Positions 7,455 through 52,234 of a DNA stretch of 64,000 nt are shown here, in pieces (within the stretch, counting starts at the first letter, position 1; each line of letters begins with the position of its first letter). The notes beneath the pieces are model-generated. The model ran no database searches. It was not told the DNA's origin and worked only from the letters and a program-made list of their open reading frames with translations. The stretch comes from Theionarchaea archaeon. GTDB taxonomy: Archaea; Methanobacteriota_B; Thermococci; Methanofastidiosales; SZ-28-30. The translations under genes were made by a program, and so were the position numbers. The stretch covers positions 67,349 to 131,348 of the forward strand of contig JACVGT010000014.1 of assembly GCA_018992685.1 (NCBI GenBank), written 5' to 3'.

Positions 7455-7901
7455 TCATCCGACAATGACCGTCCCATCTTCTTGTATCTCGATGTCCTGT
7501 CCATTCTCCACGCGATCCAGAAACTCCCTGCCCAATTGATCTACAGTGACAATTCGCTTTTCTAGCCAAATTTCAGCTAGAATTATCCCAGATGCAGCAA
7601 GTGAATCAATGCCCTCTGAAAAAAGCATGGCTTTCGGCATAAGTCTTCTATTAGCTGCCGTCTCCAGCAACAGGCCTCCCGCAGTCGAACCGATAGTCCC
7701 AGGAAGACAGAGGATCTTGCCTGTCATCACTTTTTGATACAGCTCAGGATTGTCATGATCTCCACAGACTGCTTTTCCAGTCACGTTGAAGAGTAGACTG
7801 CTGCGAAAAGATGCCAGAATGTTGAAAGGACTATGCGTAACCAACGCTTCACCTTCAATATGTCCTGGAAGAACTGCCCTTCCCTGAAAAGTCTTGCTCA
7901 T
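7455..7901 (-). CDS. Aconitase X swivel subunit (DUF126)
   Basis: GEALVT, GKILCLPGTIGSTAG; overlaps the catalytic-subunit gene by 4 nt. Confidence 0.9.
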   Translation of the reverse strand: MSKTFQGRAVLPGHIEGEALVTHSPFNILASFRSSLLFNVTGKAVCGDHDNPELYQKVMTGKILCLPGTIGSTAGGLLLETAANRRLMPKAMLFSEGIDSLAASGIILAEIWLEKRIVTVDQLGREFLDRVENGQDIEIQEDGTVIVG

Positions 7902-9211
7902 TGTACTCCCCCTGGTACATTTCCGGTGGTAACTATCTTCAGAATGTCCTCGTCTATGAAAAACCTGGCTGAAGAATATCCACGCAATTTGCTGGAGTTG
8001 GTGATTACAGCAATTCTTGAGGACAGTGGGTTATTCATTTGTGCGAGAGGACAGACAGAGCTTAGATTGGCACCAACAGTCTTCATCTGCTCATGTTCTG
8101 TACTGTACTGTTTCTTGAACAGTTCCACAACATCGGGAGCAGCACACAAGACTGTGTCTACTGTGACTTTTGAATTCCTCACTTCATGTACGGCATTCTG
8201 TATCTGGTGTACCCACCAACGGACTTGTTGCAGGCTGAGATGTGGACAGCCAATGAAACAAAGCTGGGGTCTGGCATCTGCGTGTTTCCACTGCATTGGA
8301 TAGCTATGCATTACCCGTTCAAGTTCTGCATCATCGACAACATAGGTTTGATGATCCTTGATCAAGAGGTTCCGCTGAAGCTTCAAAGCTTCAGGAGTGA
8401 CATTTTCTACATGAAAAAGCCCCACTGCACCATTGGTTGCCGCAGCCGCTCCCATATCCTTCAAGTAATCTCTGGCGGTTTCTGAAAGTCCTCTGCCCAA
8501 AAAACGGTCCAGACCAATAATGAAAGGAGTACTTTCAGCAACACGTAATCCGATGGCGCTGCCCAACAACTGAGGATTCGGAAGGTTGGAGGTCTTCACA
8601 TCTACCAGCCAGGTGGCACGTCGTCCTTCGTCTGTCACTAACCCAAAGAATGGCACTTTGCCCACAATGTTACACAGCAAATCGATTCCAGCAGAATTGC
8701 GGTGAGTCCGCGCTCCTAACACTGAATTAACATAGACCACAGCTGAGGATTCAGACCACGCCGATATATCTCCTTCCTGTGGTGTGTTCCCGACTTCAGG
8801 TAGGTAACTGGTACAGGTGAACGCCCTGTCGTTCATCAGCCCTAACTGGATCAGTTTCTTCTCGTAGTCTCCCTGCCCAGCATACATGTACCTGAAGATA
8901 ATCTTCTGTAGTAGGCTGCATTTGACGTTCTTGAAATCCATGGGACGCGGATCTGTCGTAAAGGGTCTTGTTGTCTTGATTCCTGCTGCTATCAATTCAT
9001 CTACCATCTCAAAGTAAGGACCTAGTATACCAGAACTCGCAGAAAGAACCAGATGTGGGTTTGCATCAATCTTCACCAATTTTCGTGCTCCAAATGTTTC
9101 TCCATAGGCTATCACAGACTTCATTACCTTTCGCATGGTTTCTCCATGCAACCCATTCAAGACGTCCTGTTCGTCTTGGGTCAGTTCCATGGTGGAATGA
9201 TGTCTATTCAT
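7898..9211 (-). CDS. Aconitase X catalytic subunit (DUF521)
   Basis: TCTSY, WSESSAVVYVNSVLGART, GLFHVENVTPE, IGCPH, TNSSK motifs. Confidence 0.92.
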   Translation of the reverse strand: MNRHHSTMELTQDEQDVLNGLHGETMRKVMKSVIAYGETFGARKLVKIDANPHLVLSASSGILGPYFEMVDELIAAGIKTTRPFTTDPRPMDFKNVKCSLLQKIIFRYMYAGQGDYEKKLIQLGLMNDRAFTCTSYLPEVGNTPQEGDISAWSESSAVVYVNSVLGARTHRNSAGIDLLCNIVGKVPFFGLVTDEGRRATWLVDVKTSNLPNPQLLGSAIGLRVAESTPFIIGLDRFLGRGLSETARDYLKDMGAAAATNGAVGLFHVENVTPEALKLQRNLLIKDHQTYVVDDAELERVMHSYPMQWKHADARPQLCFIGCPHLSLQQVRWWVHQIQNAVHEVRNSKVTVDTVLCAAPDVVELFKKQYSTEHEQMKTVGANLSSVCPLAQMNNPLSSRIAVITNSSKLRGYSSARFFIDEDILKIVTTGNVPGGVQ

Positions 9212-24599: not shown

Positions 24600-25004
24600 A
24601 TGATGCGGCTGATTGTGAGAGGAATTGAAGCTAGAAGATTCTTGAAAGAAGGAGAAACGTTCCCAGAAGTGGGAATCAAAAACAATAGTTCCATAATAAA
24701 CATGGAAAAAGAAGATGACGGAATATCCATAGATTTCGTATTCAACACCATTTACAATCCTTCTATAGCCACCATAAAGATAGATGGGACATTGTTTTAT
24801 CGAGGAGAGGATGCTGATACGATTCTTGAACAGTGGAGAGCCAGCAAAACCATAAAAAATGTTCACATACAGAATGCAATCATAGAGAAGGGATTAATGG
24901 AGGCAGTTATTCTTGCAAAAGAACTCAATGTTGTACCTCCCATTCCCTTGCCTCGGATCAAGGAAGAGGAGAAAAAAGTTGAAGAGGAATTCTACCATGG
25001 ATAG
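24600..25004 (+). CDS. Conserved archaeal hypothetical protein
   Basis: GIEARRF...KELNVVPPIPLP; overlaps the sepS start. Confidence 0.7.
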   Translation: MMRLIVRGIEARRFLKEGETFPEVGIKNNSSIINMEKEDDGISIDFVFNTIYNPSIATIKIDGTLFYRGEDADTILEQWRASKTIKNVHIQNAIIEKGLMEAVILAKELNVVPPIPLPRIKEEEKKVEEEFYHG

Positions 25005-26466
25005 TCCGATAGAACCTTCAAAGAAAGACTTTGAACAGGGGTGGAAAGGGGAGAGTTCGAGATTCTATGGATCCAAAGGATTTGTTCTACCCTCTCGAAA
25101 GGGTAAACGACATCCTCTTTCAGTACACCTGAGGAAGATAGAGGATATCCTTCTGGACATGGGGTTCGACCAGGTCTTTCTCAAACCTGTGTGGGATGAA
25201 AAGCATGTCCACTTGCAGTACGGACCTGAAGCCCCTGCGATCTTGGATCGATTATACTACCTGGCATCACTGCCCCGTCCTGATATTGGTGTCCCCCAGG
25301 AGATCGAGAATGCCATACTGGAGAGATGTGCTCCCGACATGGGGGAGTTGAAGCAGATTTTCAGGGACTACAAGATGGGTATGATTGATTCAGGGGAGTT
25401 GGTTGAGACGTTTGTCCACAGGTTAGGAATTGCCACGGAAGACGCCCTGTATGTCCTGTCGTTATTTCCCGAGCTGGCAGACATAAAGCCAGACCCGACC
25501 TCCAAAACGTTGATCAGTCATTTTACCACAGCCTGGTTTCCCACGTTAGCATCTTTGAGGAGGGACCCTCCAGTGCTCTTGTATACCTGGGGATGGCGAT
25601 TCAGAAGAGAGCAAAAAGAAGATGCCAGTCATTTGAGAGCCCACTATAACCTCAGTCTGGTAGTCATGGGGGACCTGGGCATTGAGGATGGAAAGGAAAT
25701 CGTGAGAGAGTTCTTCACGCGACTGGGCATGGAGGTCCAATTCGCCCTCAAGGAGAATCAACCAAGCTATTACGCATACAACACCAATTATGAAGTATTC
25801 TGGAAAGGTATGGAAGTAGCAGATATTGGCATGTTCTCTCCCATTGCTTTGGATCACTATAAGATTGAATATCCCGTGTTTAATGCGGGTCCGGGGCTGG
25901 GGCGAATAGTCATGCTCAAAGAAGGGATATCCGACTTGAGACAGGTCCACTTCCCGGAGCTCTATGGGAGGAAATATTCAGATGGCGAAATTCTGGAATC
26001 TCTCTATTTGATTAAGAAGGCCGTAAACACTGAATTGGTGTCAAAGATTGTGGAAGCTGCCCGACAGCACAAAGATGCTGCAAGCCCCTGCAGGTTCACA
26101 GTGTACAAGGACAAAACCATTCAGATCGAGGTTGTGGAAGAAGAGGAAAACACAAGATTAATTGGACCTGCAGGATTCAATGAGTTATATGTATATGATG
26201 GATCAATATATGGCGTTCCACCTGAATCTAAGAATAAGAGAATCCAGGAAATTCTTGAGAGGGGGGTGACTGCTCATCTTTGCTACATGGAAGCGTTTGC
26301 TCATTCTGTGGTTTCTTCTCTGGAAGAAGGTACACACCGCGTGGGCATGGTCAAGAGTATGTCTGACATTAATGTAGACATTCCCTCCCATATCAGAGAC
26401 CATATCAGAGCTCAAGGAAGAATTGACGTGAGAGGCCCGATGTTTTGCACTGTGGTGATTTCTTGA
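24997..26466 (+). CDS. sepS: O-phosphoseryl-tRNA(Cys) synthetase
   Basis: QYGPEAPAILDRLYYLASLPRPDIG, SHFTTAWF, FRREQKEDASHL, GPAGFNELYV, IDVRGPMF. Confidence 0.93.
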   Translation: MDSPIEPSKKDFEQGWKGESSRFYGSKGFVLPSRKGKRHPLSVHLRKIEDILLDMGFDQVFLKPVWDEKHVHLQYGPEAPAILDRLYYLASLPRPDIGVPQEIENAILERCAPDMGELKQIFRDYKMGMIDSGELVETFVHRLGIATEDALYVLSLFPELADIKPDPTSKTLISHFTTAWFPTLASLRRDPPVLLYTWGWRFRREQKEDASHLRAHYNLSLVVMGDLGIEDGKEIVREFFTRLGMEVQFALKENQPSYYAYNTNYEVFWKGMEVADIGMFSPIALDHYKIEYPVFNAGPGLGRIVMLKEGISDLRQVHFPELYGRKYSDGEILESLYLIKKAVNTELVSKIVEAARQHKDAASPCRFTVYKDKTIQIEVVEEEENTRLIGPAGFNELYVYDGSIYGVPPESKNKRIQEILERGVTAHLCYMEAFAHSVVSSLEEGTHRVGMVKSMSDINVDIPSHIRDHIRAQGRIDVRGPMFCTVVIS

Positions 26467-27414: not shown

Positions 27415-28872
27415 GTGATTCACATGTTTGAGTTAAAAGGAGTCAATGTGGCTCTGGCCACTCCCTTTACCAAGGATTCTGTTGATGAAGAAGCTTTCAA
27501 AAATCTCATCCACTACTGCAAGGCGCAAGGTGTCCATGGGATTGTACCCTGTGGCTCCACAGGTGAATTCTCCAACATGACTTTTGAAGAGAAAGAGCGA
27601 GCCATAGAGATTGCAGTTGAAGAGGCCCAGGGGATGAAGGTCATTGCAGGAACAGGGGATTCAGGAACAGATAAAACCATTGGAATGACGAAGGCAGCCG
27701 AGGACATAGGTGCAGATGCCTGTCTGGTGGTTACCCCTTTTTACATGAAACCAGCAGACAAGGGGATGTTTGAACACTTTGCAGCGTTGGAGGAGTCAGT
27801 TGATCTCCCCATTGTCCTGTACAATATTCCTCCTTTGACAGGTGTTACTCTGCCCTGGAAGGTTGTCGAAGATCTTGCCGAATTGGAAGGCATTGTGGGC
27901 ATCAAAGACTCTTCTGGGAACATGTCGTATATCATGACGTTACTGGAGAAGGTTTCATCTAAGATAAACGTGGTGTGTGGATGGGATGAAATTGTTCTTC
28001 CCTCCCTTGCCGCAGGCGCAGACGGAATGATTTTGGCCTCAGCCAATATAATCGGTGATTACTGGGTGAAAATCTACAATGCCATGCAGAACAAGGAGTA
28101 CGAAAAGGCTGTGGAAATCCAGAAAAGAATCCAGAAATTAACCCGGATCATATGTGCTACAGGTGCTCTTGGGACAAAAGCGGGGCTGAACTACTTGGGT
28201 GTAAAGGTGGGGAAATGCAGGAACCCTCTCATGATTGGTGATACCTTGTCATATGAGAATAAGGAAGAGATTAGAATCGAACTTGAAAAACTGGGGAAAA
28301 TCAAAGCAGAAGAAATTACCTTCAAACTGGAAGGAAAAGAGGTAAAGTCACGGTTTACCACAGCGGGGATTACACCTGCAGTCATTGATGATTTCTCCCT
28401 GAGAATTGGAGAAGCTCTATGTGGCGAAGGGGCAGAAGTAGCTCACATTGATTTGTTGATCGGAGAACGGAAAGGTCCTGTGGGAGAGGCCTATGCCACC
28501 GTGCTGGCTTCTGATAAAAATGCATTGCAGGTCATATTGGAGCCAAATGTCCTGGTAAAACCCAATACACTGATTATCCCGACGGTGAAAATGAAGGACA
28601 TGCGTCATGCCTCTATTGTCTATGGTCCTGCTCAGGCAGGCGTCGCTAAAGCACTGGCAGATTCAGTTCAGGATGGTATTCTGCCCGAAGAAGTGCTGTT
28701 AATTGTCAATGTGTTTGTACATCCTTCAGCCTCGAACAGAAAGCAGGTATACATAAACAATTACAAGGCCACCCGTCACGCCATCAGGAGAGCAATAGAA
28801 GGAAGACCGACCAGGGAAGAGATCATGGAAGTCAAAGACAATGCACGTCATCCCTTCAGGTACTCTCCTTGA
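27415..28872 (+). CDS. DapA/NAL-family class I aldolase fused to a C-terminal formaldehyde-activating enzyme (Fae) domain
   Basis: GSTGE, LYNIP, GIKDSSG in the N-terminal barrel; [36 protein letters not shown] in the C-terminal domain. Confidence 0.9.
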   Translation: MIHMFELKGVNVALATPFTKDSVDEEAFKNLIHYCKAQGVHGIVPCGSTGEFSNMTFEEKERAIEIAVEEAQGMKVIAGTGDSGTDKTIGMTKAAEDIGADACLVVTPFYMKPADKGMFEHFAALEESVDLPIVLYNIPPLTGVTLPWKVVEDLAELEGIVGIKDSSGNMSYIMTLLEKVSSKINVVCGWDEIVLPSLAAGADGMILASANIIGDYWVKIYNAMQNKEYEKAVEIQKRIQKLTRIICATGALGTKAGLNYLGVKVGKCRNPLMIGDTLSYENKEEIRIELEKLGKIKAEEITFKLEGKEVKSRFTTAGITPAVIDDFSLRIGEALCGEGAEVAHIDLLIGERKGPVGEAYATVLASDKNALQVILEPNVLVKPNTLIIPTVKMKDMRHASIVYGPAQAGVAKALADSVQDGILPEEVLLIVNVFVHPSASNRKQVYINNYKATRHAIRRAIEGRPTREEIMEVKDNARHPFRYSP

Positions 28873-29127
28873 CTTCTTTTCCTTTTCCCTTTTCATTTCC
28901 TCTTTCATTTTCACTTCCGTTTTCTTGAATAAGTCCCTTTTGGCCATCACTATCTCCGAAGAAGATTCTTGCACTTGTTCTGAAACTACCGAGGAGTGTA
29001 GAGATTGAAAATCATACCAGAATGTGGAAAGCAGCCCAATCAAGAGCCCTCCAAATGGAAGGGAAAACTTCGTCCCTATAAAAAGAGAGAGAAAGAATTT
29101 GTTACTGTGATCATTGCTCTTGGACGA

Positions 29128-37924: not shown

Positions 37925-38872
37925 ATGGAAGATATTGAAATGTACAAGAAAATGCTGGAAATCAGAATGTTTGAGGAGAAAGTGTATGACCTTTTCGCTC
38001 AGAACCTCATCCCAGGAACCATGCATCTGTACATGGGACAGGAGGCGGTGGCTGTGGGGGTATGCGCAGCCCTCACTCCCAATGATTTTATCACCTCCAC
38101 TCACCGGGGACACGGCCACTGTATTGCTAAGGGTGCCTCTCTCAAGAAGATGATGGCTGAAATTTTCGGAAAGAAAACAGGCTACTGCAAAGGAAAGGGG
38201 GGGAGCATGCACATAACAGATAAGAATATCGGCATGCTGGGAGCAAATGCAGTCGTGGGAGGCGCTATTCCCATCGCTGTTGGAGCTGGACTCTCCTGCA
38301 AACTGAAATACCCGGAACGGGTGACAGCATGCTTTTTTGGCGACGGGGCATCAAACCAGGGAACTTTCCATGAAGGGATAAACATGGCGTCAGTCTGGGA
38401 TCTTCCTGTGATCTTTGTGTGTGAAAACAACCTGTATGCCATGGGAACCCGGCAGTCTCTGGTGATGAACATCCAGGACATTTCACAGAGAGCAGCAGGA
38501 TACAAGATACCTGGAGTGACAGTTGACGGAAATGACGTCATGGCGGTACATGAAGAAGCACAAAGGGCAGTGGCCAGAGCCAGAAATGGGGAAGGGCCGA
38601 CGTTGCTTGAATGCAAGACGTACAGGCACAAGGGACATTCCCGGTTTGATCCCGCAAAGTACAGGCCTCCGGAAGAAGTTGCTGAGTGGATGGCCAGAGA
38701 CCCAATAGAATCCTTTAGAGACAAGCTTCTGGATAAGGGAATCCCGGAGGAGTTCTTACATAAAATTGAATCCACAGTAGAAGCTGAAATCGACGAAGCC
38801 GTCAAATTTGCTGAAGAGAGCCCTCTCCCCGAGCCTGAGGACGCACTTAAGGACGTGTGGGTGATAGAATGA
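37925..38872 (+). CDS. TPP-dependent pyruvate/acetoin dehydrogenase E1 alpha
   Basis: HLYMGQEA, THRGHGH, GKGGSMH, GDGASNQG...ENN, TYRHKGHS. Confidence 0.95.
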   Translation: MEDIEMYKKMLEIRMFEEKVYDLFAQNLIPGTMHLYMGQEAVAVGVCAALTPNDFITSTHRGHGHCIAKGASLKKMMAEIFGKKTGYCKGKGGSMHITDKNIGMLGANAVVGGAIPIAVGAGLSCKLKYPERVTACFFGDGASNQGTFHEGINMASVWDLPVIFVCENNLYAMGTRQSLVMNIQDISQRAAGYKIPGVTVDGNDVMAVHEEAQRAVARARNGEGPTLLECKTYRHKGHSRFDPAKYRPPEEVAEWMARDPIESFRDKLLDKGIPEEFLHKIESTVEAEIDEAVKFAEESPLPEPEDALKDVWVIE

Positions 38873-39843
38873 GAGAAATCACTGTGGTTGAAGCACTGAA
38901 TGAAGCTCTGAGAGAAGAAATGCGAAGGGACGAAAATGTTGTACTGCTGGGAGAAGACATCGGAAAATACTGGCAGGGAGCTTTCAAGGTGACTAAGGGA
39001 CTGGAAGAGGAGTTCGGCTCAGATCGCGTGAGGGACACACCCATTTCAGAGAATGCAATTGTAGGGTGTGCAGTGGGTGCTGCCATGACAGGGCTGAGAC
39101 CCGTAGCTGAAATCATGTTTGGGGACCTGGTGGCTCTGGCAATGGATCAGATCTGCAACCAGGCTGCCAAGTTGCGCTACATGTCAGGGGGGCAGGTCAG
39201 GGTACCCATGGTTCTCCGTACTCCTTTTGGGGCAGGAGGATCCTATGCCTCCCATCACTCACAGAGCCTGGAAGCCTGGTTTATTCATGTGCCTGGACTG
39301 AAGGTGGTACAGCCTTCCAATGCGTATGATGCCAAGGGGCTGCTCAAAGCAAGCATTCGCGATGACAATCCCGTGGTGTTCTGTGAACATAAGTTTGTGT
39401 ACGGGCTGAAAGGGACTGTGCCAGAGGAGGACTATGTGGTTCCCCTTGGAGAAGCCAGGGTAGCACGAGAAGGTGAAGACATCACCATTGTAGCCACCTC
39501 CTTGATGGTAGAGAGAGCACTCAGGGCAGCTGCAGCGCTGGAAGAGGATGGAATTTCCTGTGAAATTGTTGATCCGCGTACTCTCAGACCACTGGATGAA
39601 GAAACGCTCTGTGCCTCAGCCAAGAAGACAGGCAAAGTTCTCATCATTCATGAGGCATGCGATACGGGCGGGATTTCTGGCGAGATCACCAAAACTCTAG
39701 TAAGGAGAGTTTTTTATTATCTGGATGCAATTGAGATACTGGCAGGAAAAGATGCTCCTATTCCATTCGCCCCAGTAATGGAAAAATGGGTAGCGCCAGA
39801 TGAAGAACGAATCAAGAAAGCCGTAAAGGAGATTGTAGTATGA
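38869..39843 (+). CDS. Pyruvate/acetoin dehydrogenase E1 beta
   Basis: GEDIG, DTPISE, GLRPVAEIMF, HHSQSLE, DPRTLRPLD. Confidence 0.95.
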   Translation: MREITVVEALNEALREEMRRDENVVLLGEDIGKYWQGAFKVTKGLEEEFGSDRVRDTPISENAIVGCAVGAAMTGLRPVAEIMFGDLVALAMDQICNQAAKLRYMSGGQVRVPMVLRTPFGAGGSYASHHSQSLEAWFIHVPGLKVVQPSNAYDAKGLLKASIRDDNPVVFCEHKFVYGLKGTVPEEDYVVPLGEARVAREGEDITIVATSLMVERALRAAAALEEDGISCEIVDPRTLRPLDEETLCASAKKTGKVLIIHEACDTGGISGEITKTLVRRVFYYLDAIEILAGKDAPIPFAPVMEKWVAPDEERIKKAVKEIVV

Positions 39844-41471
39844 AGATGGTAATGCCCAAAATGGGAATGACAATGGAAGAAGGAACCATTGTTGAATGGA
39901 AAAAGCGAGAGGGAGAATTCGTTGAAAAGGGTGAGATAATTCTGGAGATCATGACTAACAAAGTAAATATTGAGGTAGAAGCACCTGCATCTGGATTTTT
40001 GAAGATTCTACGAGGAGTGGATGACGTTGTGCTGGTGGGAGAGGTTATTGCATCGATTGAAGAAAAAGTTCCAGAAGCTGTGGAAAAGGCGGAGGTTTCT
40101 CGAGCTATGGAGGATGTCCCCTGGAAGGAACCAGAATTCAAGCCAGTAAGGCAGGAGAGAGAGGTGGTGGAAATTTCTGTACAAGAAGAGAGGACACCTG
40201 CATCTCCAAGGGCCAGGAGAGTGGCCGAAGACTACGGAGTTCTGCTGGAAAATGTGAGAGGAACTGGACCAGACGGTGCCGTCACTGAAGGAGACGTGCT
40301 CAGCTATGTTGGAAAGCGGAAATCTCAGGAAGCCTTTCAATCGGGGCTACCTGGAGTCTCTCCCCTTGCAGAACGCATTGCCCGGGAGAAGGGTATTGAT
40401 CTGTCTAGGATCAAGGGTACAGGACTCGAAGGGAAAATCACAAAGGAAGACGTTTTCAGGTACATGGAAGAAAGAGAGAAACCTGAACGGCCTAGAATGC
40501 AGAAGGAGTTGGAACCAGAAAAACCAGGAATAGAGAAGGAGCGGGAACCAGAGATTCCTAGAATAGAGAAGGAGCGGGAACCAGAGATTCCTAGAATAGA
40601 GAAAGAGCGGGAACCAGAGATTCCTAGAATAGAGAAGTCTTCAGAGATTGAATTGGAACAGGCAATCGAAAAGCCAATGATAAGACCTGAACCCGTTTCA
40701 CAGCTGCCACCAATACAGACCGGGGCAACACTGGCAGAACCAGAACACCGCGTTGAAGAGCCCATTATGCACCTTGAGAAACCTCTCGGGCCTGAACCGG
40801 AAGGAAAGACTCTCCCTTTGACAGGAATACGAAAACTCACTGCAGAGAGAATGAGCAGGAGCAAAAGAGAGGCTCCTCATCTGACCCTGGGCATGGACGT
40901 GGACATGACAGAGGCCAGCAACCTGAAAACCTCTCTTGCAGTCACCTACACCGACATTCTCGTCAAGGCTGTTGCCCTTGCGTTGAGGACCCATCCCCAG
41001 CTGAACTCTACCTTATCTGAAAACAGGATCGTACTGAGAGACACTATCAACATCGGAATTGCAGTGGCCAGGGGAGAGGATCTGCTGGTGCCTGTGATCC
41101 ACAGAGCAGATGCTCTCTCTTTAAAGAAGATTTCTCAGGCAACTGCAGATATCATAGAGCGAACTCGCAAGGACCAGTTGAAAGACACCGATGTTCTAGA
41201 CGGCACTTTTACCATTTCCAACCTGGGAATGTATGATATCGACTTTTTTACACCCATTATCAACCCCCCTGAAGCTGCAATCTTGGGAGTGGGAAGAATC
41301 ACACCGCGGCCTGTGGTGGTAAGGAATCGAATTGAAATACGTGAGATAGCTACCCTCTCTTTGAGTTTCGACCACCGAATTGTTAATGGCGTACCTGCTG
41401 CCCTTTTCCTCAAGGAGGTCAGGAATCTCCTGGAACATCCCTACAGGCTGCTGATGGAGGAAGAGCCATGA
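39840..41471 (+). CDS. Dihydrolipoamide acyltransferase E2
   Basis: Lipoyl domain (EIMTNKV), two subunit-binding domains, FTISNLG, PIINPPE, DHRIVNG. Confidence 0.95.
   Translation: MKMVMPKMGMTMEEGTIVEWKKREGEFVEKGEIILEIMTNKVNIEVEAPASGFLKILRGVDDVVLVGEVIASIEEKVPEAVEKAEVSRAMEDVPWKEPEFKPVRQEREVVEISVQEERTPASPRARRVAEDYGVLLENVRGTGPDGAVTEGDVLSYVGKRKSQEAFQSGLPGVSPLAERIAREKGIDLSRIKGTGLEGKITKEDVFRYMEEREKPERPRMQKELEPEKPGIEKEREPEIPRIEKEREPEIPRIEKEREPEIPRIEKSSEIELEQAIEKPMIRPEPVSQLPPIQTGATLAEPEHRVEEPIMHLEKPLGPEPEGKTLPLTGIRKLTAERMSRSKREAPHLTLGMDVDMTEASNLKTSLAVTYTDILVKAVALALRTHPQLNSTLSENRIVLRDTINIGIAVARGEDLLVPVIHRADALSLKKISQATADIIERTRKDQLKDTDVLDGTFTISNLGMYDIDFFTPIINPPEAAILGVGRITPRPVVVRNRIEIREIATLSLSFDHRIVNGVPAALFLKEVRNLLEHPYRLLMEEEP
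40492..40637 (+). repeat. 33-bp in-frame tandem repeat (IEKEREPEIPR) in the E2 linker, 3 near-perfect copies plus degenerate flanks
   Basis: GAATAGAGAAGGAGCGGGAACCAGAGATTCCTA at 40528, 40561 and 40594. Confidence 0.95.
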
Positions 41472-42784
41472 TAACGATACTTGGTGGGGGCCCTGGAGGG
41501 TACACAGCTGCCATCCGGGCAGTCCAGCTCGGCGCTGAGGTAACACTACTTGAAAAGGAAGAAGTGGGGGGAACCTGCCTGAACTGGGGCTGCGTTCCCT
41601 CTAAGGTATTCTTGAAAGGTTCTAAAATGTACAGCCAGCTTAAATTTGCTGAATCCTACGGTGTCTTTGCCAAACCATCTCCTTTTGACATGAGGAGGCT
41701 GGGAGAACGAAAGAACGAGGTCAAACAAGCGTTGGTCATGGGATTGAAGAACGTGCTCAGGTCGTATGGGGTGAATATTGTACACGGAGAGGGTCGGATG
41801 ATTGATGAACACACAGTGGTGGGTCCTGGAGGGAATATTGCGTGTGACAAGATTATTCTGGCCACGGGGTGTCAGCCGGAGGTGCCCCATTTGTTTCAAG
41901 AACTCTCCGTGACATACAAAGATGTTTTCCAGCTGCAATATCTTCCCAGAAGTGTTCTGGTGGTGAATGGGGGGGTGTTCGCTGTGGAAATGGCCTGGTT
42001 CTTTTTGGAATTGGGGTCACAGGTGACCATGGTGGCTGAAAATGTGCTGGAAAGGGATTTTGAGGATATTGAAACTCGCATAGCATCTTACCTTCAGAAC
42101 AGAGGAGTGAAATTTGTACAGGGAAGAATCGCATCCATCAAGAAACAAGGAGAACAGAAACTGGTAGAAATCGGAGAAGAAGAGATTATTGCAGAGGAGC
42201 TTATTTGGATGAATCGGAAACGCGTATTAGAGGGAATTCCAAGGAAGCTGGTGCAACATGAGAGTGTTGCTGTGAACGAGCACATGCAGACTGCCTTCCC
42301 GGCTGTGTATGCAGTGGGAGACATCACAGGGAGTTACACTGCAGGTGATGCCATGGCTCAGGGAGTTGTGGCAGCCGAGCACGCAATGGGGAATACGACT
42401 GCGTACAATCCTCGGACCGTTCCCAAGGTACTCTATGCTCCAGAAGCTGCAGTGATTGGACTGACGGAGAGAGAAGCTTCAGAGGAGTACGACGTGGTAA
42501 AGGGGAATTTCCCGTATGGAGCTTCAGGCAGAGCTCAGACGGTGGGTGCCATCAGAGGGAGAGTAACTATACTTGCGGATAAGAAGTATGGTGAAATCTT
42601 GGGGGCCCACATAGTGGGAAAAGGTGCCTCTGAGTTGATTCAGCTGATTGGGTTTGCAATGAGATTGGAAGCCACCATAGATGAGCTTTCGTCCTTGCTG
42701 TGTGCTCATCCTACTATGGTGGAAATGATACGGGATGCAGGATTGGATATTCATGGAAATGCCTTTAACCTACCCAGGAAATGA
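41468..42784 (+). CDS. lpdA: Dihydrolipoamide dehydrogenase E3
   Basis: GGGPGGY, GGTCLNWGCVPSK, YAVGD, HPT. Confidence 0.9.
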   Translation: MITILGGGPGGYTAAIRAVQLGAEVTLLEKEEVGGTCLNWGCVPSKVFLKGSKMYSQLKFAESYGVFAKPSPFDMRRLGERKNEVKQALVMGLKNVLRSYGVNIVHGEGRMIDEHTVVGPGGNIACDKIILATGCQPEVPHLFQELSVTYKDVFQLQYLPRSVLVVNGGVFAVEMAWFFLELGSQVTMVAENVLERDFEDIETRIASYLQNRGVKFVQGRIASIKKQGEQKLVEIGEEEIIAEELIWMNRKRVLEGIPRKLVQHESVAVNEHMQTAFPAVYAVGDITGSYTAGDAMAQGVVAAEHAMGNTTAYNPRTVPKVLYAPEAAVIGLTEREASEEYDVVKGNFPYGASGRAQTVGAIRGRVTILADKKYGEILGAHIVGKGASELIQLIGFAMRLEATIDELSSLLCAHPTMVEMIRDAGLDIHGNAFNLPRK

Positions 42785-43478
42785 GTTACGGCTGTTGTAC
42801 CAGCATGGCGATCCGGCTGTTTCTCTGGCTTTTGAGGAAGCCATAGCCAGGTGCGGTATACCGACGTTCAGGGTGTGGGTGACCTCGAAATGTGTGGTCA
42901 TAGGACGATTCCAGGACGTGAGTGAGGAAGTGGATGTGGAATACTGCACCGAGAAAGAGCTTCCCATTCTAAGACGGTTTACAGGAGGCGGGGCTGTCGT
43001 CTTGGATGAGGGTGTTGCCTGTCTTGCTTTTTGCCTTCCAGTGCAGAAGAACCCGCTGGATGTCTTTCACGCTCTGAGTGAATGTGTTGGTAGTGCTATC
43101 GGGGCTGAGATTGATGAAAGGAATAATCTGTTCGTGAACGGGAAGAAGGTCTCAGGTGCTGCAGGCTGTAAGAAGTGGGGCTCCCTATTCCACCACTTGA
43201 CCTTGCTGATGGCATGTGACACGGAACTGATGAGAGCTCTCACACCGGGGAGTGCAAGCCAATGCAAAACTGGCAGCGATGCACGTGAAGTCCGGAATAT
43301 TGGCACGAACATGAGAGATGTACTAGTCCGAGTGGCCAGAAACATTGGGAACCTGCTTGACACCAAGGTAACACCAGGAAAGATTACTCAGGAAGAGCGA
43401 AGCCTGGCAGATTACTTGCTCAGAGAGAAGTACGCCAAGAGCGAGTGGAATTTCATGGCCATTGATCCATTACACTAG
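42735..43478 (+). CDS. lplA: Lipoate-protein ligase A family (start uncertain)
   Basis: VVIGRFQ, RRFTGGGAV, GKKVSGAA. Confidence 0.88.
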   Translation: MQDWIFMEMPLTYPGNELRLLYQHGDPAVSLAFEEAIARCGIPTFRVWVTSKCVVIGRFQDVSEEVDVEYCTEKELPILRRFTGGGAVVLDEGVACLAFCLPVQKNPLDVFHALSECVGSAIGAEIDERNNLFVNGKKVSGAAGCKKWGSLFHHLTLLMACDTELMRALTPGSASQCKTGSDAREVRNIGTNMRDVLVRVARNIGNLLDTKVTPGKITQEERSLADYLLREKYAKSEWNFMAIDPLH

Positions 43479-43934: not shown

Positions 43935-44129
43935 ACGTTGATTTCAATTTAGAGTTTATAAAGATTTCTAGCATTCTTCAGTCTGTATAAGCTTGTTTTT
44001 GGATATTTGTCCACCGGTGGTAGATGGAAGTCTCAACAAGAGATTTTTCCTGTCAGTCAGAGGGTTGATTCACAGGGTCACACTAGGGTTTGGACCATAC
44101 ACTTTTTATTGCAAGCACTAATTGATACT

Positions 44130-45341
44130 ATGCCTACGCTTGTTGAGACCATCGTTTCAAAGCACAAGGAATCACCAGTCAGAGCAGGGGACGAGATTGA
44201 AGAATTGCCTGTCGATAGACTGCTTATTAATGATGTGGCAGCCGTACAGCTGGTGGAACGCTACAGGGAAATTGAGGATCTACTTCCGGCTCCTTTTGAT
44301 CCTTCATCTGTATTTGTAGTATTGGACCACGTAGTTCCCCCTTGTGATTCCGTGATAGCTGATAACCTGCAGAGAACAAAGCAATTTGCCCGTACGCTGC
44401 ACCTGAACCTCTTCAAAGAGGGGGAAGGGATCGAACACGTCCTCCTTCCTGAAAATAACCTGGTCAGTCCAGGTGATATTCTACTGGGAACGGATTCTCA
44501 CACCTGTACGAATGGGGCTTTGGGTTGTTTCGCGTTCGGTATCGGGATCACAGATGCTCTGTTCGTCCTGTTCACAGGAACTTTCTATAACTTTGTCGTA
44601 CCAGAAACAGTTTTGCTGACCTGTTCAGGCAAGCTTCAAAAGGGGGTTTATGCCAAAGACCTGATTCTGTACGTGTTGTCCCACCTTGATCAGCAAAAGA
44701 TGTTGAATAAAGTACTTCAATTCAGTGGCCCAGTCTTTGCGTCCATGCCGCTCGATGGAATGCTGACGGTTTGTAACATGACCACAGAAATCAGTGCAAA
44801 GACGGGGATCATGCCCTATGAAACTAGGGAAGACCTATCAGCAGAATTTGCAGAAAGATATACCTTTGATGTTACCCCGCTTGAACCCGTTGTGGCTGTT
44901 CCTCACTCCCCGCTGAATGGAAAGCCAGTGGCTGAACTGACCGTTGAGATCACCAAAGCATTCCTCGGGTCATGCACCAATAGCAGGCTGTCTGATCTGC
45001 AGGTAGCAGCTTCCATTCTCAGGGGTAAGAAAGTCAAAGACACAGTAGATTTGTATATTGTGCCGGGTTCCCGGAAAATCTATGAAAAAATCCAGGAGAG
45101 TGGTATCCTTTCCACCTTCATCCAGGCAGGGGCTGTTATTCTCCCCCCGAATTGCGCAGCCTGCTTTGGTAGACATATGGGGGTCTTGGGACCCAGCGAT
45201 GTGTGTATTTCTTCGGCAAACAGGAATTTCGTTGGGAGAATGGGGTCTAAGGATGCCAAAGTATATCTTGGGTCCCCAGCCACCGTGGCTGCATCTGCAT
45301 TGACAGGGATGATAACTGATCCAAGGGAGGTCCTACCATGA
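44130..45341 (+). CDS. 3-isopropylmalate dehydratase/homoaconitase large subunit (LeuC/HacA family)
   Basis: LDHVVP, GTDSHTCT, GSCTNSR, CAACFG, NRNFVGRMG. Confidence 0.93.
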   Translation: MPTLVETIVSKHKESPVRAGDEIEELPVDRLLINDVAAVQLVERYREIEDLLPAPFDPSSVFVVLDHVVPPCDSVIADNLQRTKQFARTLHLNLFKEGEGIEHVLLPENNLVSPGDILLGTDSHTCTNGALGCFAFGIGITDALFVLFTGTFYNFVVPETVLLTCSGKLQKGVYAKDLILYVLSHLDQQKMLNKVLQFSGPVFASMPLDGMLTVCNMTTEISAKTGIMPYETREDLSAEFAERYTFDVTPLEPVVAVPHSPLNGKPVAELTVEITKAFLGSCTNSRLSDLQVAASILRGKKVKDTVDLYIVPGSRKIYEKIQESGILSTFIQAGAVILPPNCAACFGRHMGVLGPSDVCISSANRNFVGRMGSKDAKVYLGSPATVAASALTGMITDPREVLP

Positions 45342-45823
45342 AAATTGAAGGGACTGCCCTACCAGTGGGAGATGACATTGATACTGATCTCATTATTCCT
45401 ACATTCGCACTACAGAAGTCAAGGGATCCCAGAACGTTCGCTGACTATGCCTTCTGCCACACCATACCGGGGTTCAAAGAGATACCTGAGAAAATCATCG
45501 TTGCTGGCCACAACTTCGGGTGCGGATCATCCCGGGAGGAAGCAGTTTTTGCCCTCCTATATGCGGATGTTAAGGCAGTTCTGGCCAGGTCTTTTGCCCC
45601 TATCTTCAAGAGAAATGCATTCAATAATGCATTACTGTCTATAGAGATGGATACGTCAAGAATCAAGAAGAGTGATCCTCTGAGAATTGATCTAGACAGG
45701 AAAACGGTATGTGACACTACAACGGGAGAAGACTACTCATTTACACTGACTGCAGCTGAAGAAACGTTGATTCAGCACGGTGGATTACTGCCCATGTTAA
45801 GGAAACGGCTTGCCAATCCGTGA
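45338..45823 (+). CDS. 3-isopropylmalate dehydratase/homoaconitase small subunit (LeuD/HacB family)
   Basis: DDIDTDLIIP, NFGCGSSRE, SFAPIFKRNA, GGLL. Confidence 0.93.
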   Translation: MKIEGTALPVGDDIDTDLIIPTFALQKSRDPRTFADYAFCHTIPGFKEIPEKIIVAGHNFGCGSSREEAVFALLYADVKAVLARSFAPIFKRNAFNNALLSIEMDTSRIKKSDPLRIDLDRKTVCDTTTGEDYSFTLTAAEETLIQHGGLLPMLRKRLANP

Positions 45824-51025: not shown

Positions 51026-52234
51026 ATGAAAATTGGAGAAGCCTTAGTAGGGGATGGACTGGAAGTCGCTCATATTGATCTGATTATTGGAGAAAAGGAC
51101 AGTGCAGTTGGGCAGGCTTTTGTAAGCAGCCTTGCTCAGCCTTCCTACGGTCATACCCCTATGCTGGGCGTCATACGTCCCAACCTGCCCTCTAAACCAT
51201 CCACCCTTATTGTGCCCAAAGTCACCATAAGAGGGTTCAAAGATGCAGGAAAAATGTTCGGCCCTGCCCAGGCAGGAGTTGCCAAGGCAGTGGCTGATGC
51301 AGTGGAGGAGGGACTGATTCCACGAGAACACTGCGAGGACTGGGTTGTCATTGTTTCTGTGTTTATTCACAAAGATGCTTCAGATTATCGGAAGATTTAT
51401 CAATATAACTACGGAGCAACGAAACTGGCCATAAAGAGGGCCATGGAAGACTATCCTTCGGTTGAGAAAGTCATAAGAGAGAAGGATAGGGCTACTCACC
51501 CCATCATGGGATTCAGAGTGTACCGGCTGTGGAATTCACCCTATCTGCAGGTTGCTCTTGACCTGACCAGCGAAGAACAGGTCAAGAATATCATCGAAAA
51601 ACTGCCTCTCAGGGAGCGATTGCTGCTGGAAGCGGGTACGCCTCTCATAAAGAACTGCGGCATTGAAATCGTGGAAAAGATTAGGGCAATGCGACAGGAA
51701 TCTTTCATTATTGCAGACCTGAAAACACTGGATGTGGGAAGGTTAGAGGTGAAAATGGCAGCAGATGCAACAGCAGATGCAGTGTGTATTTCAGGACTCG
51801 GTCCCAATGCATCGGTGGAAAAATCCATTCAGGAAGCGTACAGGCAGGGCATTTACTCGATTGTGGACTTTATGAATGTTACAGATATTGAGAAAAAACT
51901 GAAATCTCTGAAATATAAGCCCGATATCGCCCTCATTCACCGCAATGTGGATGTGGAGACTGCGGCCAGAGAACGAGGGGAGGAGCCGGAGACCAAATGG
52001 GGAAATATTACAGCTATCAAGAAGCTGGTCAAGCTTGTTTCAGTGGCAGGCGGCATCACGCCTCAGACCTGTGGAGAGGCACTGGACAAAGGTGCTGATA
52101 TTATAGTAGTTGGCAGGTACATTATCAGGTCGTATGATCCCTACCAGGCAGCCCGGGACTTCTTGGAGAAAATGCCTCCTGATCCTGATACTATGCGACT
52201 AATCCTGGACGAAGATGAAGTGGTAGGAACATAA
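51026..52234 (+). CDS. fae-hps: Bifunctional formaldehyde-activating enzyme / 3-hexulose-6-phosphate synthase
   Basis: [36 protein letters not shown]; [25 protein letters not shown]. Confidence 0.95.

Follow-up and report, generated by a model that had tools for sequence, protein, structure and literature searches.

What does a protein do that carries the fold of a lysine-pathway aldolase at one end and a formaldehyde-activating enzyme (Fae) at the other? This question is raised by a single gene in a stretch of 64,000 nucleotides from a Theionarchaea archaeon (GenBank assembly GCA_018992685.1, contig JACVGT010000014.1, positions 67,349 to 131,348 of the forward strand), which is referred to here, at its full length, as the window. 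The open reading frame (ORF) lies at 27415..28872 on the plus strand and encodes 485 aa when read from a GTG at 27415. It joins a barrel of the dihydrodipicolinate synthase (DHDPS) family, that of DapA, to a complete Fae domain. The product is very probably not the DapA of the lysine pathway. The reading that we favour, with about as much confidence as doubt, is that of a bifunctional enzyme in which a class I pyruvate-type aldolase would work together with a formaldehyde-activating domain as a pyruvate hydroxymethyltransferase linked to tetrahydromethanopterin (H4MPT).

The translation start is likelier to be the ATG at 27424, which gives a protein of 482 aa, because near homologues (P0001, P0008) open with MFELKG. 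The N-terminal part of the protein (residues 7-284; 27433..28266, plus strand) is a DHDPS-family class I (Schiff-base) aldolase barrel that matches PF00701 with an E-value of 2.7e-72. The C-terminal part (residues 331-481; 28405..28857, plus strand) is a Fae domain that matches PF08714 with an E-value of 1.9e-50 and 171.4 bits, covers profile positions 1-158 of 159, and scores 180.7 bits with the NCBIfam fae domain model TIGR03126 (cut-off 118.05). Between the two, positions 28267..28404 (plus strand) encode the C-terminal helix of the barrel and a conserved linker, which carries the motif LSYENKEEIRIELEKLGKI and is modelled as a beta-hairpin (residues 299-314) running into the Fae domain. An AlphaFold2 (AF2) model of the whole chain has a mean pLDDT of 86.2 and a pTM of 0.83. 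Foldseek searches with this model returned DHDPS structures only (TMt ~0.9), and no solved chain among these matches spans both domains. The fusion protein looks soluble, and no RNA data set was listed for this stretch. A first-pass annotation of the window had described one 485-aa ORF with a DapA-family barrel and a full Fae domain, and the Pfam and NCBIfam results agree with that description.

The residues expected for catalysis are present in both domains. Alignment with E. coli DapA (reference taken from NC_000913.3) places S48/T49 of GSTGE on T44/T45, Y110 on Y107, Y136 of LYNIP on Y133, and K164 of GIKDS (codon 27904..27906, plus strand) on the Schiff-base lysine K161; the aldolase catalytic set of S48/T49, Y110, Y136 and K164 is intact. 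The same cannot be said of the substrate-binding arginine. Arg138 of E. coli DapA sits at the active-site entrance and binds aspartate semialdehyde (ASA; PMC4977564). At this position the fusion reads YNIPPLTG, with Leu141 (codon TTG, 27835..27837, plus strand) in a column that holds Arg in the DHDPS of Aquifex, M. jannaschii and Agrobacterium. Leu also occupies this column in three E. coli pyruvate aldolases of the superfamily that are not DapA, namely NanA, YagE and YjhH. The Fae part aligns with residues 6-166 of the 169 residues of M. extorquens Fae (PDB 1Y5Y; E 7.7e-33). The stretch EVAHIDL is identical in the two proteins and includes His344 (28444-28446, plus strand), which we take to be the Fae active-site residue, and the domain ends in an RHPFR tail. 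The first-pass annotation had listed GSTGE, the LYNIP tyrosine, the GIKDS lysine, the missing DHDPS arginine and the retained AHID histidine, and each of these is where it had been placed.

Is the fusion real, and how widespread is it? Both Pfam domains were found in all 120 of the best homologues listed (of 2964 matches, from 7999 scored candidates). In addition, another study yielded a Logan contig of 732 bases that runs through the domain junction (positions 28182-28913) and aligns gap-free with 3 mismatches. An assembly artefact, which the first-pass annotation had named as a possible undoing of its proposal, is ruled out by these two results, and the search for proteins of DHDPS-plus-Fae architecture shows the fusion to be widespread. 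An exhaustive search of 50%-identity representatives returned 13 full-length two-domain proteins (P0121-P0130, P0134-P0136) at 35-58% identity, after which come DHDPS-family proteins of the ordinary, unfused kind, at about 40% identity or lower. The source labels include Theionarchaea (82% identical), Methanofastidiosia, Bathyarchaeia, Lokiarchaeota/Promethearchaeota, Korarchaeota/Thermoproteota and one Anaerolineae bacterium, and the nearest genome record is a Theionarchaea metagenome-assembled genome (MAG) at 93% identity. Within the class, 121 genomes were sampled, and a full-length fused match was found only in the window's own family, where three of the four genomes have one (G000, G046 and G030). 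The remaining genomes gave a match to the aldolase part (at most 39% identity), a match to the Fae part of Fae-Hps, or none. At 11 loci with unfused relatives, no standalone fae was seen beside the aldolase gene. The fusion, with its 13 representatives and its spread over several archaeal phyla and Anaerolineae, is old as well as widespread, which argues for selection keeping both domains together.

The product names seen for these proteins are 4-hydroxy-tetrahydrodipicolinate synthase (DapA), formaldehyde-activating enzyme or hypothetical protein, and nothing else. The domain combination is already visible in precomputed Pfam annotations, and the novelty is one of function, not of architecture. 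A full-text literature search, with subscription journals and supplements outside its reach, found no paper describing a DHDPS-Fae fusion. The available portion of a paper on Bathyarchaeia genomics reports fae as widespread and leaves the fusion unmentioned (PMC10321748).

Conservation across the family follows the pattern seen in the window's protein. An alignment of 195 sequences was built from the query, the best 120 homologues, copies of at least 400 aa from the fetched loci, and 14 representatives; the set is redundant and its members are not independent, the 120 being close Bathyarchaeia-type relatives. In this alignment the Schiff-base lysine is kept in 193/195 members, Tyr136 in 194/195, Asp191 in 193/195, Glu192 in 195/195 and the Fae histidine in 170/195. 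The Arg138 column contains Cys (131), Leu (23), Val (22), Ala (10), Thr (6), Ile (2) and Tyr (1), and Arg in none of the 195. A tree was also made from 143 aldolase-domain sequences. These are what remained of the query, 4 references from E. coli and 150 representatives once 12 rows with fewer than 240 domain residues had been excluded. The tree was inferred by a single method (FastTree, LG+gamma) and midpoint-rooted, and resolution is weak at its deep branches. The fusions fall in a single clade of 18 tips (support 0.978) that also takes in three short relatives, unfused or fragmentary; the sisters of this clade are two unfused Leu-bearing proteins (support 0.987). E. coli DapA is placed elsewhere, among 76 Arg-bearing sequences.

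The genomic setting of the lysine pathway bears on the same question. The window's genome (G000) is 3.03 Mb in size and 91% complete, and the MAGs of its family are 84-91% complete, which makes absences from them soft. Within these limits, the window's genome has no match to dapB (TIGR00036, PF05173), no asd, no DapL above cut-off and no other DHDPS-family gene. dapB was found in none of the four genomes of the family. Elsewhere in the order it is present in 0/23 genomes of two other families and in 5/7 of the sister family f4, where it directly adjoins an unfused dapA. Three of the unfused f4 dapA genes read GTTGE, YNIxGR[ST]G, KEASG and SGDD, which is the canonical DapA signature with its Arg. 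The verdict that the fusion is very probably not DapA is drawn from the absence of Arg138, the separate clade and the lack of dapB in the family.

Two further genes with lysine-pathway resemblance were noted in these genomes. G046, of the same genus, carries a second, divergent DHDPS-family gene (C36:23312-25908; L117, L125) that is 31% identical to the fusion barrel and has Arg at the 138 position along with unusual KEAVP and TCDS motifs. This gene adjoins a ThrC-like gene and a weak PanB/PEP-mutase-like match, and a gene of its type was not found in the window's genome. Matches to LysX (TIGR02144) are below cut-off, and a RimK/LysX-like ATP-grasp gene adjoins mch in three of the family's four genomes. 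In the window's genome it lies at C20:15719-16342 (minus strand), contains one in-frame TGA, and is near mch (C20:17646-18563). It looks more like MptN, the H4MPT glutamate ligase, than like an enzyme of the lysine pathway.

If the fusion is not DapA, what might it do? In several phyla the Fae domain and the class I aldolase remain joined and both intact, which argues for formaldehyde as an intermediate shared by the two sites. With a 2-oxo acid in the Schiff base, and if formaldehyde is the aldehyde and pyruvate the donor, the substrate would be 4-hydroxy-2-oxobutanoate (HOB). In the first step, the aldolase domain would cleave or form HOB, in equilibrium with pyruvate and formaldehyde, via a Schiff base on Lys164. 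In the second, the Fae domain would condense the formaldehyde with H4MPT or free it from methylene-H4MPT. Overall, this would give HOB + H4MPT <-> pyruvate + methylene-H4MPT + H2O, and free formaldehyde would never build up, by the same logic as in archaeal Fae-Hps. The loss of Arg would correspond to the loss of the residue that gives DapA its specificity for ASA. The host uses H4MPT, as judged from mch (PF02289), which is above cut-off in all four family genomes, and from its Fae-Hps gene. The latter is a separate and conventional gene in the window (51026..52234, plus strand); it had been reported in the first-pass annotation, and Fae (3-161) and OMPdecase/HUMPS (172-378) domains were found in its product.

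The positive half of this proposal, in which we infer formaldehyde as the aldehyde, pyruvate as the keto acid, channelling between the sites and the physiological direction, draws on the analogy with Fae-Hps and on class I pyruvate aldolase chemistry, and is the most economical reading. The first-pass annotation had made the same two-part claim. Its denial of a lysine-pathway DHDPS has been strengthened by Arg138, the clade and dapB, and its pyruvate aldolase acting on formaldehyde and HOB is carried forward as a proposal. A reading in the synthetic direction is rather unlikely; it would have a one-carbon (C1) unit from the Wood-Ljungdahl pathway added to pyruvate by a dedicated natural H4MPT-dependent enzyme, and the resulting HOB transaminated to homoserine. 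Homoserine dehydrogenase is present in one of the four family genomes and ThrC matches are below cut-off, a pattern too patchy to count for or against a link to homoserine.

How does the fusion compare with enzymes already described? The nearest parallel is Fae-Hps (NF009833), where Fae is also joined to a lyase, one with formaldehyde as its product or substrate, and the Fae domains of the two proteins are 47% identical in the host. In archaeal Fae-Hps, the lyase releases formaldehyde, which Fae then condenses with H4MPT. The partner there is Hps, of the OMP-decarboxylase fold, whereas the fusion has in its place a class I Schiff-base aldolase from the DHDPS superfamily; the two domains also stand in the opposite order, with Fae N-terminal in Fae-Hps and C-terminal in the fusion; and the acceptor is ribulose-5-phosphate in the one and would be pyruvate in the other. 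With DapA (TIGR00674, PF00701) the fusion has in common the fold, the Schiff-base lysine, the Thr/Tyr/Tyr relay and 30-40% identity to solved DHDPS. DapA reads K-[EA]-[AS]-[ST]-G and G-D-D where the fusion reads KDSSG and G-W-D-E, and the fusion lacks Arg138 and has gained Fae. SHMT and PanB catalyse the net type of reaction proposed here, in which a hydroxymethyl group passes from a methylene-pterin carrier to a carbon acid or back. Their folds and cofactors (pyridoxal phosphate and a metal, respectively) are entirely different, and the fusion would differ in splitting the transfer over two fused sites with formaldehyde as the intermediate. RhmA (YfaU) is a metal-dependent class II aldolase of another fold. 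The proposed condensation of pyruvate and formaldehyde to HOB is catalysed by the E. coli enzyme as a promiscuous activity, with no coupling to a C1 carrier, and has been used in a synthetic homoserine cycle; a review that discusses it in connection with that cycle terms HOB a non-native metabolite (PMC8879981).

Several observations weigh against an H4MPT-linked pyruvate aldolase. No metabolic operon emerged around the fusion in the neighbourhood set (46 loci, 461 ORFs clustered by BLASTP), and homoserine dehydrogenase lies near it in only 2 of these loci. The N-terminal part scores 239.8 bits with the NCBIfam dapA model TIGR00674, above the cut-off of 206.15, and the closest matches in both sequence and structure are genuine DHDPS at 30-40% identity. 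What the fusion has of DapA is the DHDPS fold, this curated score, the lysine and the proton relay; what it lacks is Arg138, a place inside the Arg-bearing clade and a dapB partner. The window's genome has dapF and two lysA genes, with the fusion as its sole DHDPS-family gene, and asd, the gene for the enzyme that makes ASA, occurs in two of the family's four genomes and may supply it. These points would suit a true DapA (4-hydroxy-tetrahydrodipicolinate synthase) at work in a non-canonical route to lysine or diaminopimelate (DAP), with Fae fused to it for an unrelated reason. Such a role keeps a small share of our confidence and is judged improbable. Beyond the missing ASA-binding residue, the tree and the absence of dapB, dapF and both lysA paralogues of the window's genome occur in a cluster (C4:50730-59158; L008) that also holds genes for a Na+/solute symporter and a class V aminotransferase, an M29-peptidase-like gene and an Asp/Glu-racemase-like gene (arylmalonate-decarboxylase-like). 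This cluster looks like one for the uptake and salvage of diaminopimelate-containing peptides, not for de novo synthesis. The unfused dapB-dapA pair with its Arg, moreover, is found in another family of the same order.

The more serious competitor, though still an unlikely one, is that a different 4-hydroxy-2-oxo acid, such as a 2-keto-3-deoxy sugar acid yielding glycolaldehyde or glyceraldehyde, is the substrate of what is still a class I pyruvate aldolase. Its Fae-like domain would be mainly a scaffold for oligomerisation or a regulatory module, or would act on an aldehyde other than formaldehyde, and there would be no channelling. Here the Leu in the Arg138 column, common to NanA, YagE and YjhH, counts in its favour, as does the motif that follows the strand after the Schiff-base lysine. 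These three are pyruvate-releasing retro-aldol enzymes with G-x-D-[ED] at this point; the query reads G189-W-D-E192 where E. coli NanA reads GYDE, and G-[HWY]-D-E is near-invariant across the fusion family at Asp191 and Glu192. In NanA the motif contacts sugar hydroxyls, and it would fit a larger polyhydroxy substrate better than HOB. M. jannaschii DapA, however, reads GNDE, and the motif is therefore not diagnostic. The three enzymes lack Fae, and the fusion does not cluster with any of them in the tree, which holds only these three references of their kind and is weakly resolved at its deep branches. No sugar-acid dehydratase or kinase genes were seen near the fusion.

The tandem copies of the fusion can be read for and against the same alternative. 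Two fusion genes stand in tandem at 17 of the 46 loci (metagenome loci L037, L046, L060, L062, L065, L067-L069, L071-L074, L076, L078, L081, L082 and L097). The upstream copy keeps the aldolase residues and has a degenerate Fae-like domain, in which the RHPF tail is missing in 17/17 and the histidine is replaced in 15/17, often by Gln or Ser. The 25 of 195 family members that have lost the Fae histidine are mostly such upstream copies. Judged by its residues, the Fae-like domain is probably not a working Fae in this part of the family, and its fold seems able to persist as a non-catalytic module, perhaps within a hetero-oligomer. Persistence of the domain without Fae chemistry is what a sugar-acid aldolase would allow, and it also weighs against formaldehyde as the common intermediate. 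Yet the downstream copy has both domains intact in 17/17 pairs, so that an intact Fae is retained at every locus seen; the histidine is present in the window's protein and in most members, and the window's Fae domain passes the NCBI cut-off for the fae equivalog domain. Part of the tandem group may be bacterial, since one cluster is named Anaerolineae and LytR-type neighbours are seen in the group.

Could the hydroxymethyl group of methylene-H4MPT be passed to a 2-oxo acid other than pyruvate? An example would be the conversion of alpha-ketoisovalerate to ketopantoate, with the fusion as a class I analogue of PanB. The chemistry is formally the same as that of the pyruvate hydroxymethyltransferase favoured above, and there are H4MPT users without a known ketopantoate hydroxymethyltransferase: PanB (PF02548) is above cut-off in 0/34 genomes of the order and is also missing from two methanogen controls. 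Methanogens without PanB are also without the fusion, however, and the archaeal phosphopantothenate synthetase PPS (PF02006), which consumes pantoate, is found in 0/4 genomes of the fusion family and in 16/17 and 7/7 genomes of two families that lack the fusion. This is the opposite of the distribution expected for a ketopantoate synthase, which is disfavoured for that reason and regarded as highly improbable. Viewed by itself, the PPS distribution (0/10 genomes in families f1 and f2, 23/24 in f3 and f4) suggests that auxotrophy for CoA precursors differs between these lineages of the order.

Few archaea of anoxic sediments are commoner than Bathyarchaeia and Lokiarchaeota. In metabolic reconstructions that trust them, the names now attached to the fusion would credit its hosts with a lysine step that they probably lack, and would miss a link between C3/C4 keto acids and the one-carbon pool carried on H4MPT. 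Should the H4MPT-linked pyruvate aldolase prove true, it would be the first dedicated natural enzyme for the interconversion of pyruvate plus C1 and HOB, a reaction otherwise met as a promiscuous activity in synthetic methylotrophy. It would also be the second case, after Fae-Hps, of formaldehyde channelling to H4MPT. The reading in the synthetic direction, if true, would further provide an aspartate-independent route to homoserine, threonine and methionine, that is, a C1 + C3 route to C4 compounds, and a natural counterpart of the engineered homoserine cycle in Bathyarchaeia, Lokiarchaeota and Theionarchaea, which include some of the most abundant archaea of sediments.

The immediate neighbours of the fusion differ between lineages. 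In Theionarchaea it lies between endonuclease V and a convergent thrS, and in the Bathyarchaeia-type group between a protein of about 433 aa and the tRNA methyltransferase TrmI. The recurrent neighbours among the 46 loci are the ~433-aa protein (14 loci), TrmI (10 loci) and a 316-aa protein (9 loci). The ~433-aa protein, the commonest neighbour in the Bathyarchaeia-type group, has a gene that may diverge from the fusion gene, run in the same direction or overlap it (one, from a metagenome, is L040:76-1377 on the minus strand). Neither Pfam nor NCBIfam gives a match at E<5, the Atlas gives none of use, and tblastn found no such gene in the window's genome.

The 316-aa protein has a mean column identity of 70% across lineages and is predicted to form a TIM barrel (AF2 pLDDT 82). 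It has no Pfam or NCBIfam match; its structure matches CutC (Z 15.2) and the U32 peptidase Mk0906 (Z 14.4), and its Atlas features point toward U32-like clusters. It stands beside the fusion in L023 (G030), L048, L050, L055, L063, L073, L076, L078 and L091. In the window's genome it is encoded at C12:81964-82941 (L109:7962-8942), on the minus strand and not adjacent to the fusion, and it is present in 6/6 genomes of a family that lacks the fusion. The 316-aa protein is therefore not an obligate partner.

Other genes of the window belong to central metabolism and translation. A complete operon for a 2-oxo-acid dehydrogenase complex (E1 alpha, E1 beta, E2 and E3), together with a lipoate-protein ligase, occupies 37925-43478 on the plus strand; its host is presumably an anaerobic archaeon, and the genome also encodes GcvH, at another site (C12). 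At 7455-9211 on the minus strand is an aconitase X pair, made up of the AcnX large subunit and the swivel domain, and at 44007-45823 on the plus strand a separate pair of large and small subunits of the aconitase/IPM-isomerase type. Upstream of the fusion, positions 24913-26466 (plus strand) encode a class II tRNA synthetase that matches the PheRS-alpha core type in Pfam. This is presumably an O-phosphoseryl-tRNA synthetase (SepRS), which would fit a methanogen-related archaeal lineage.

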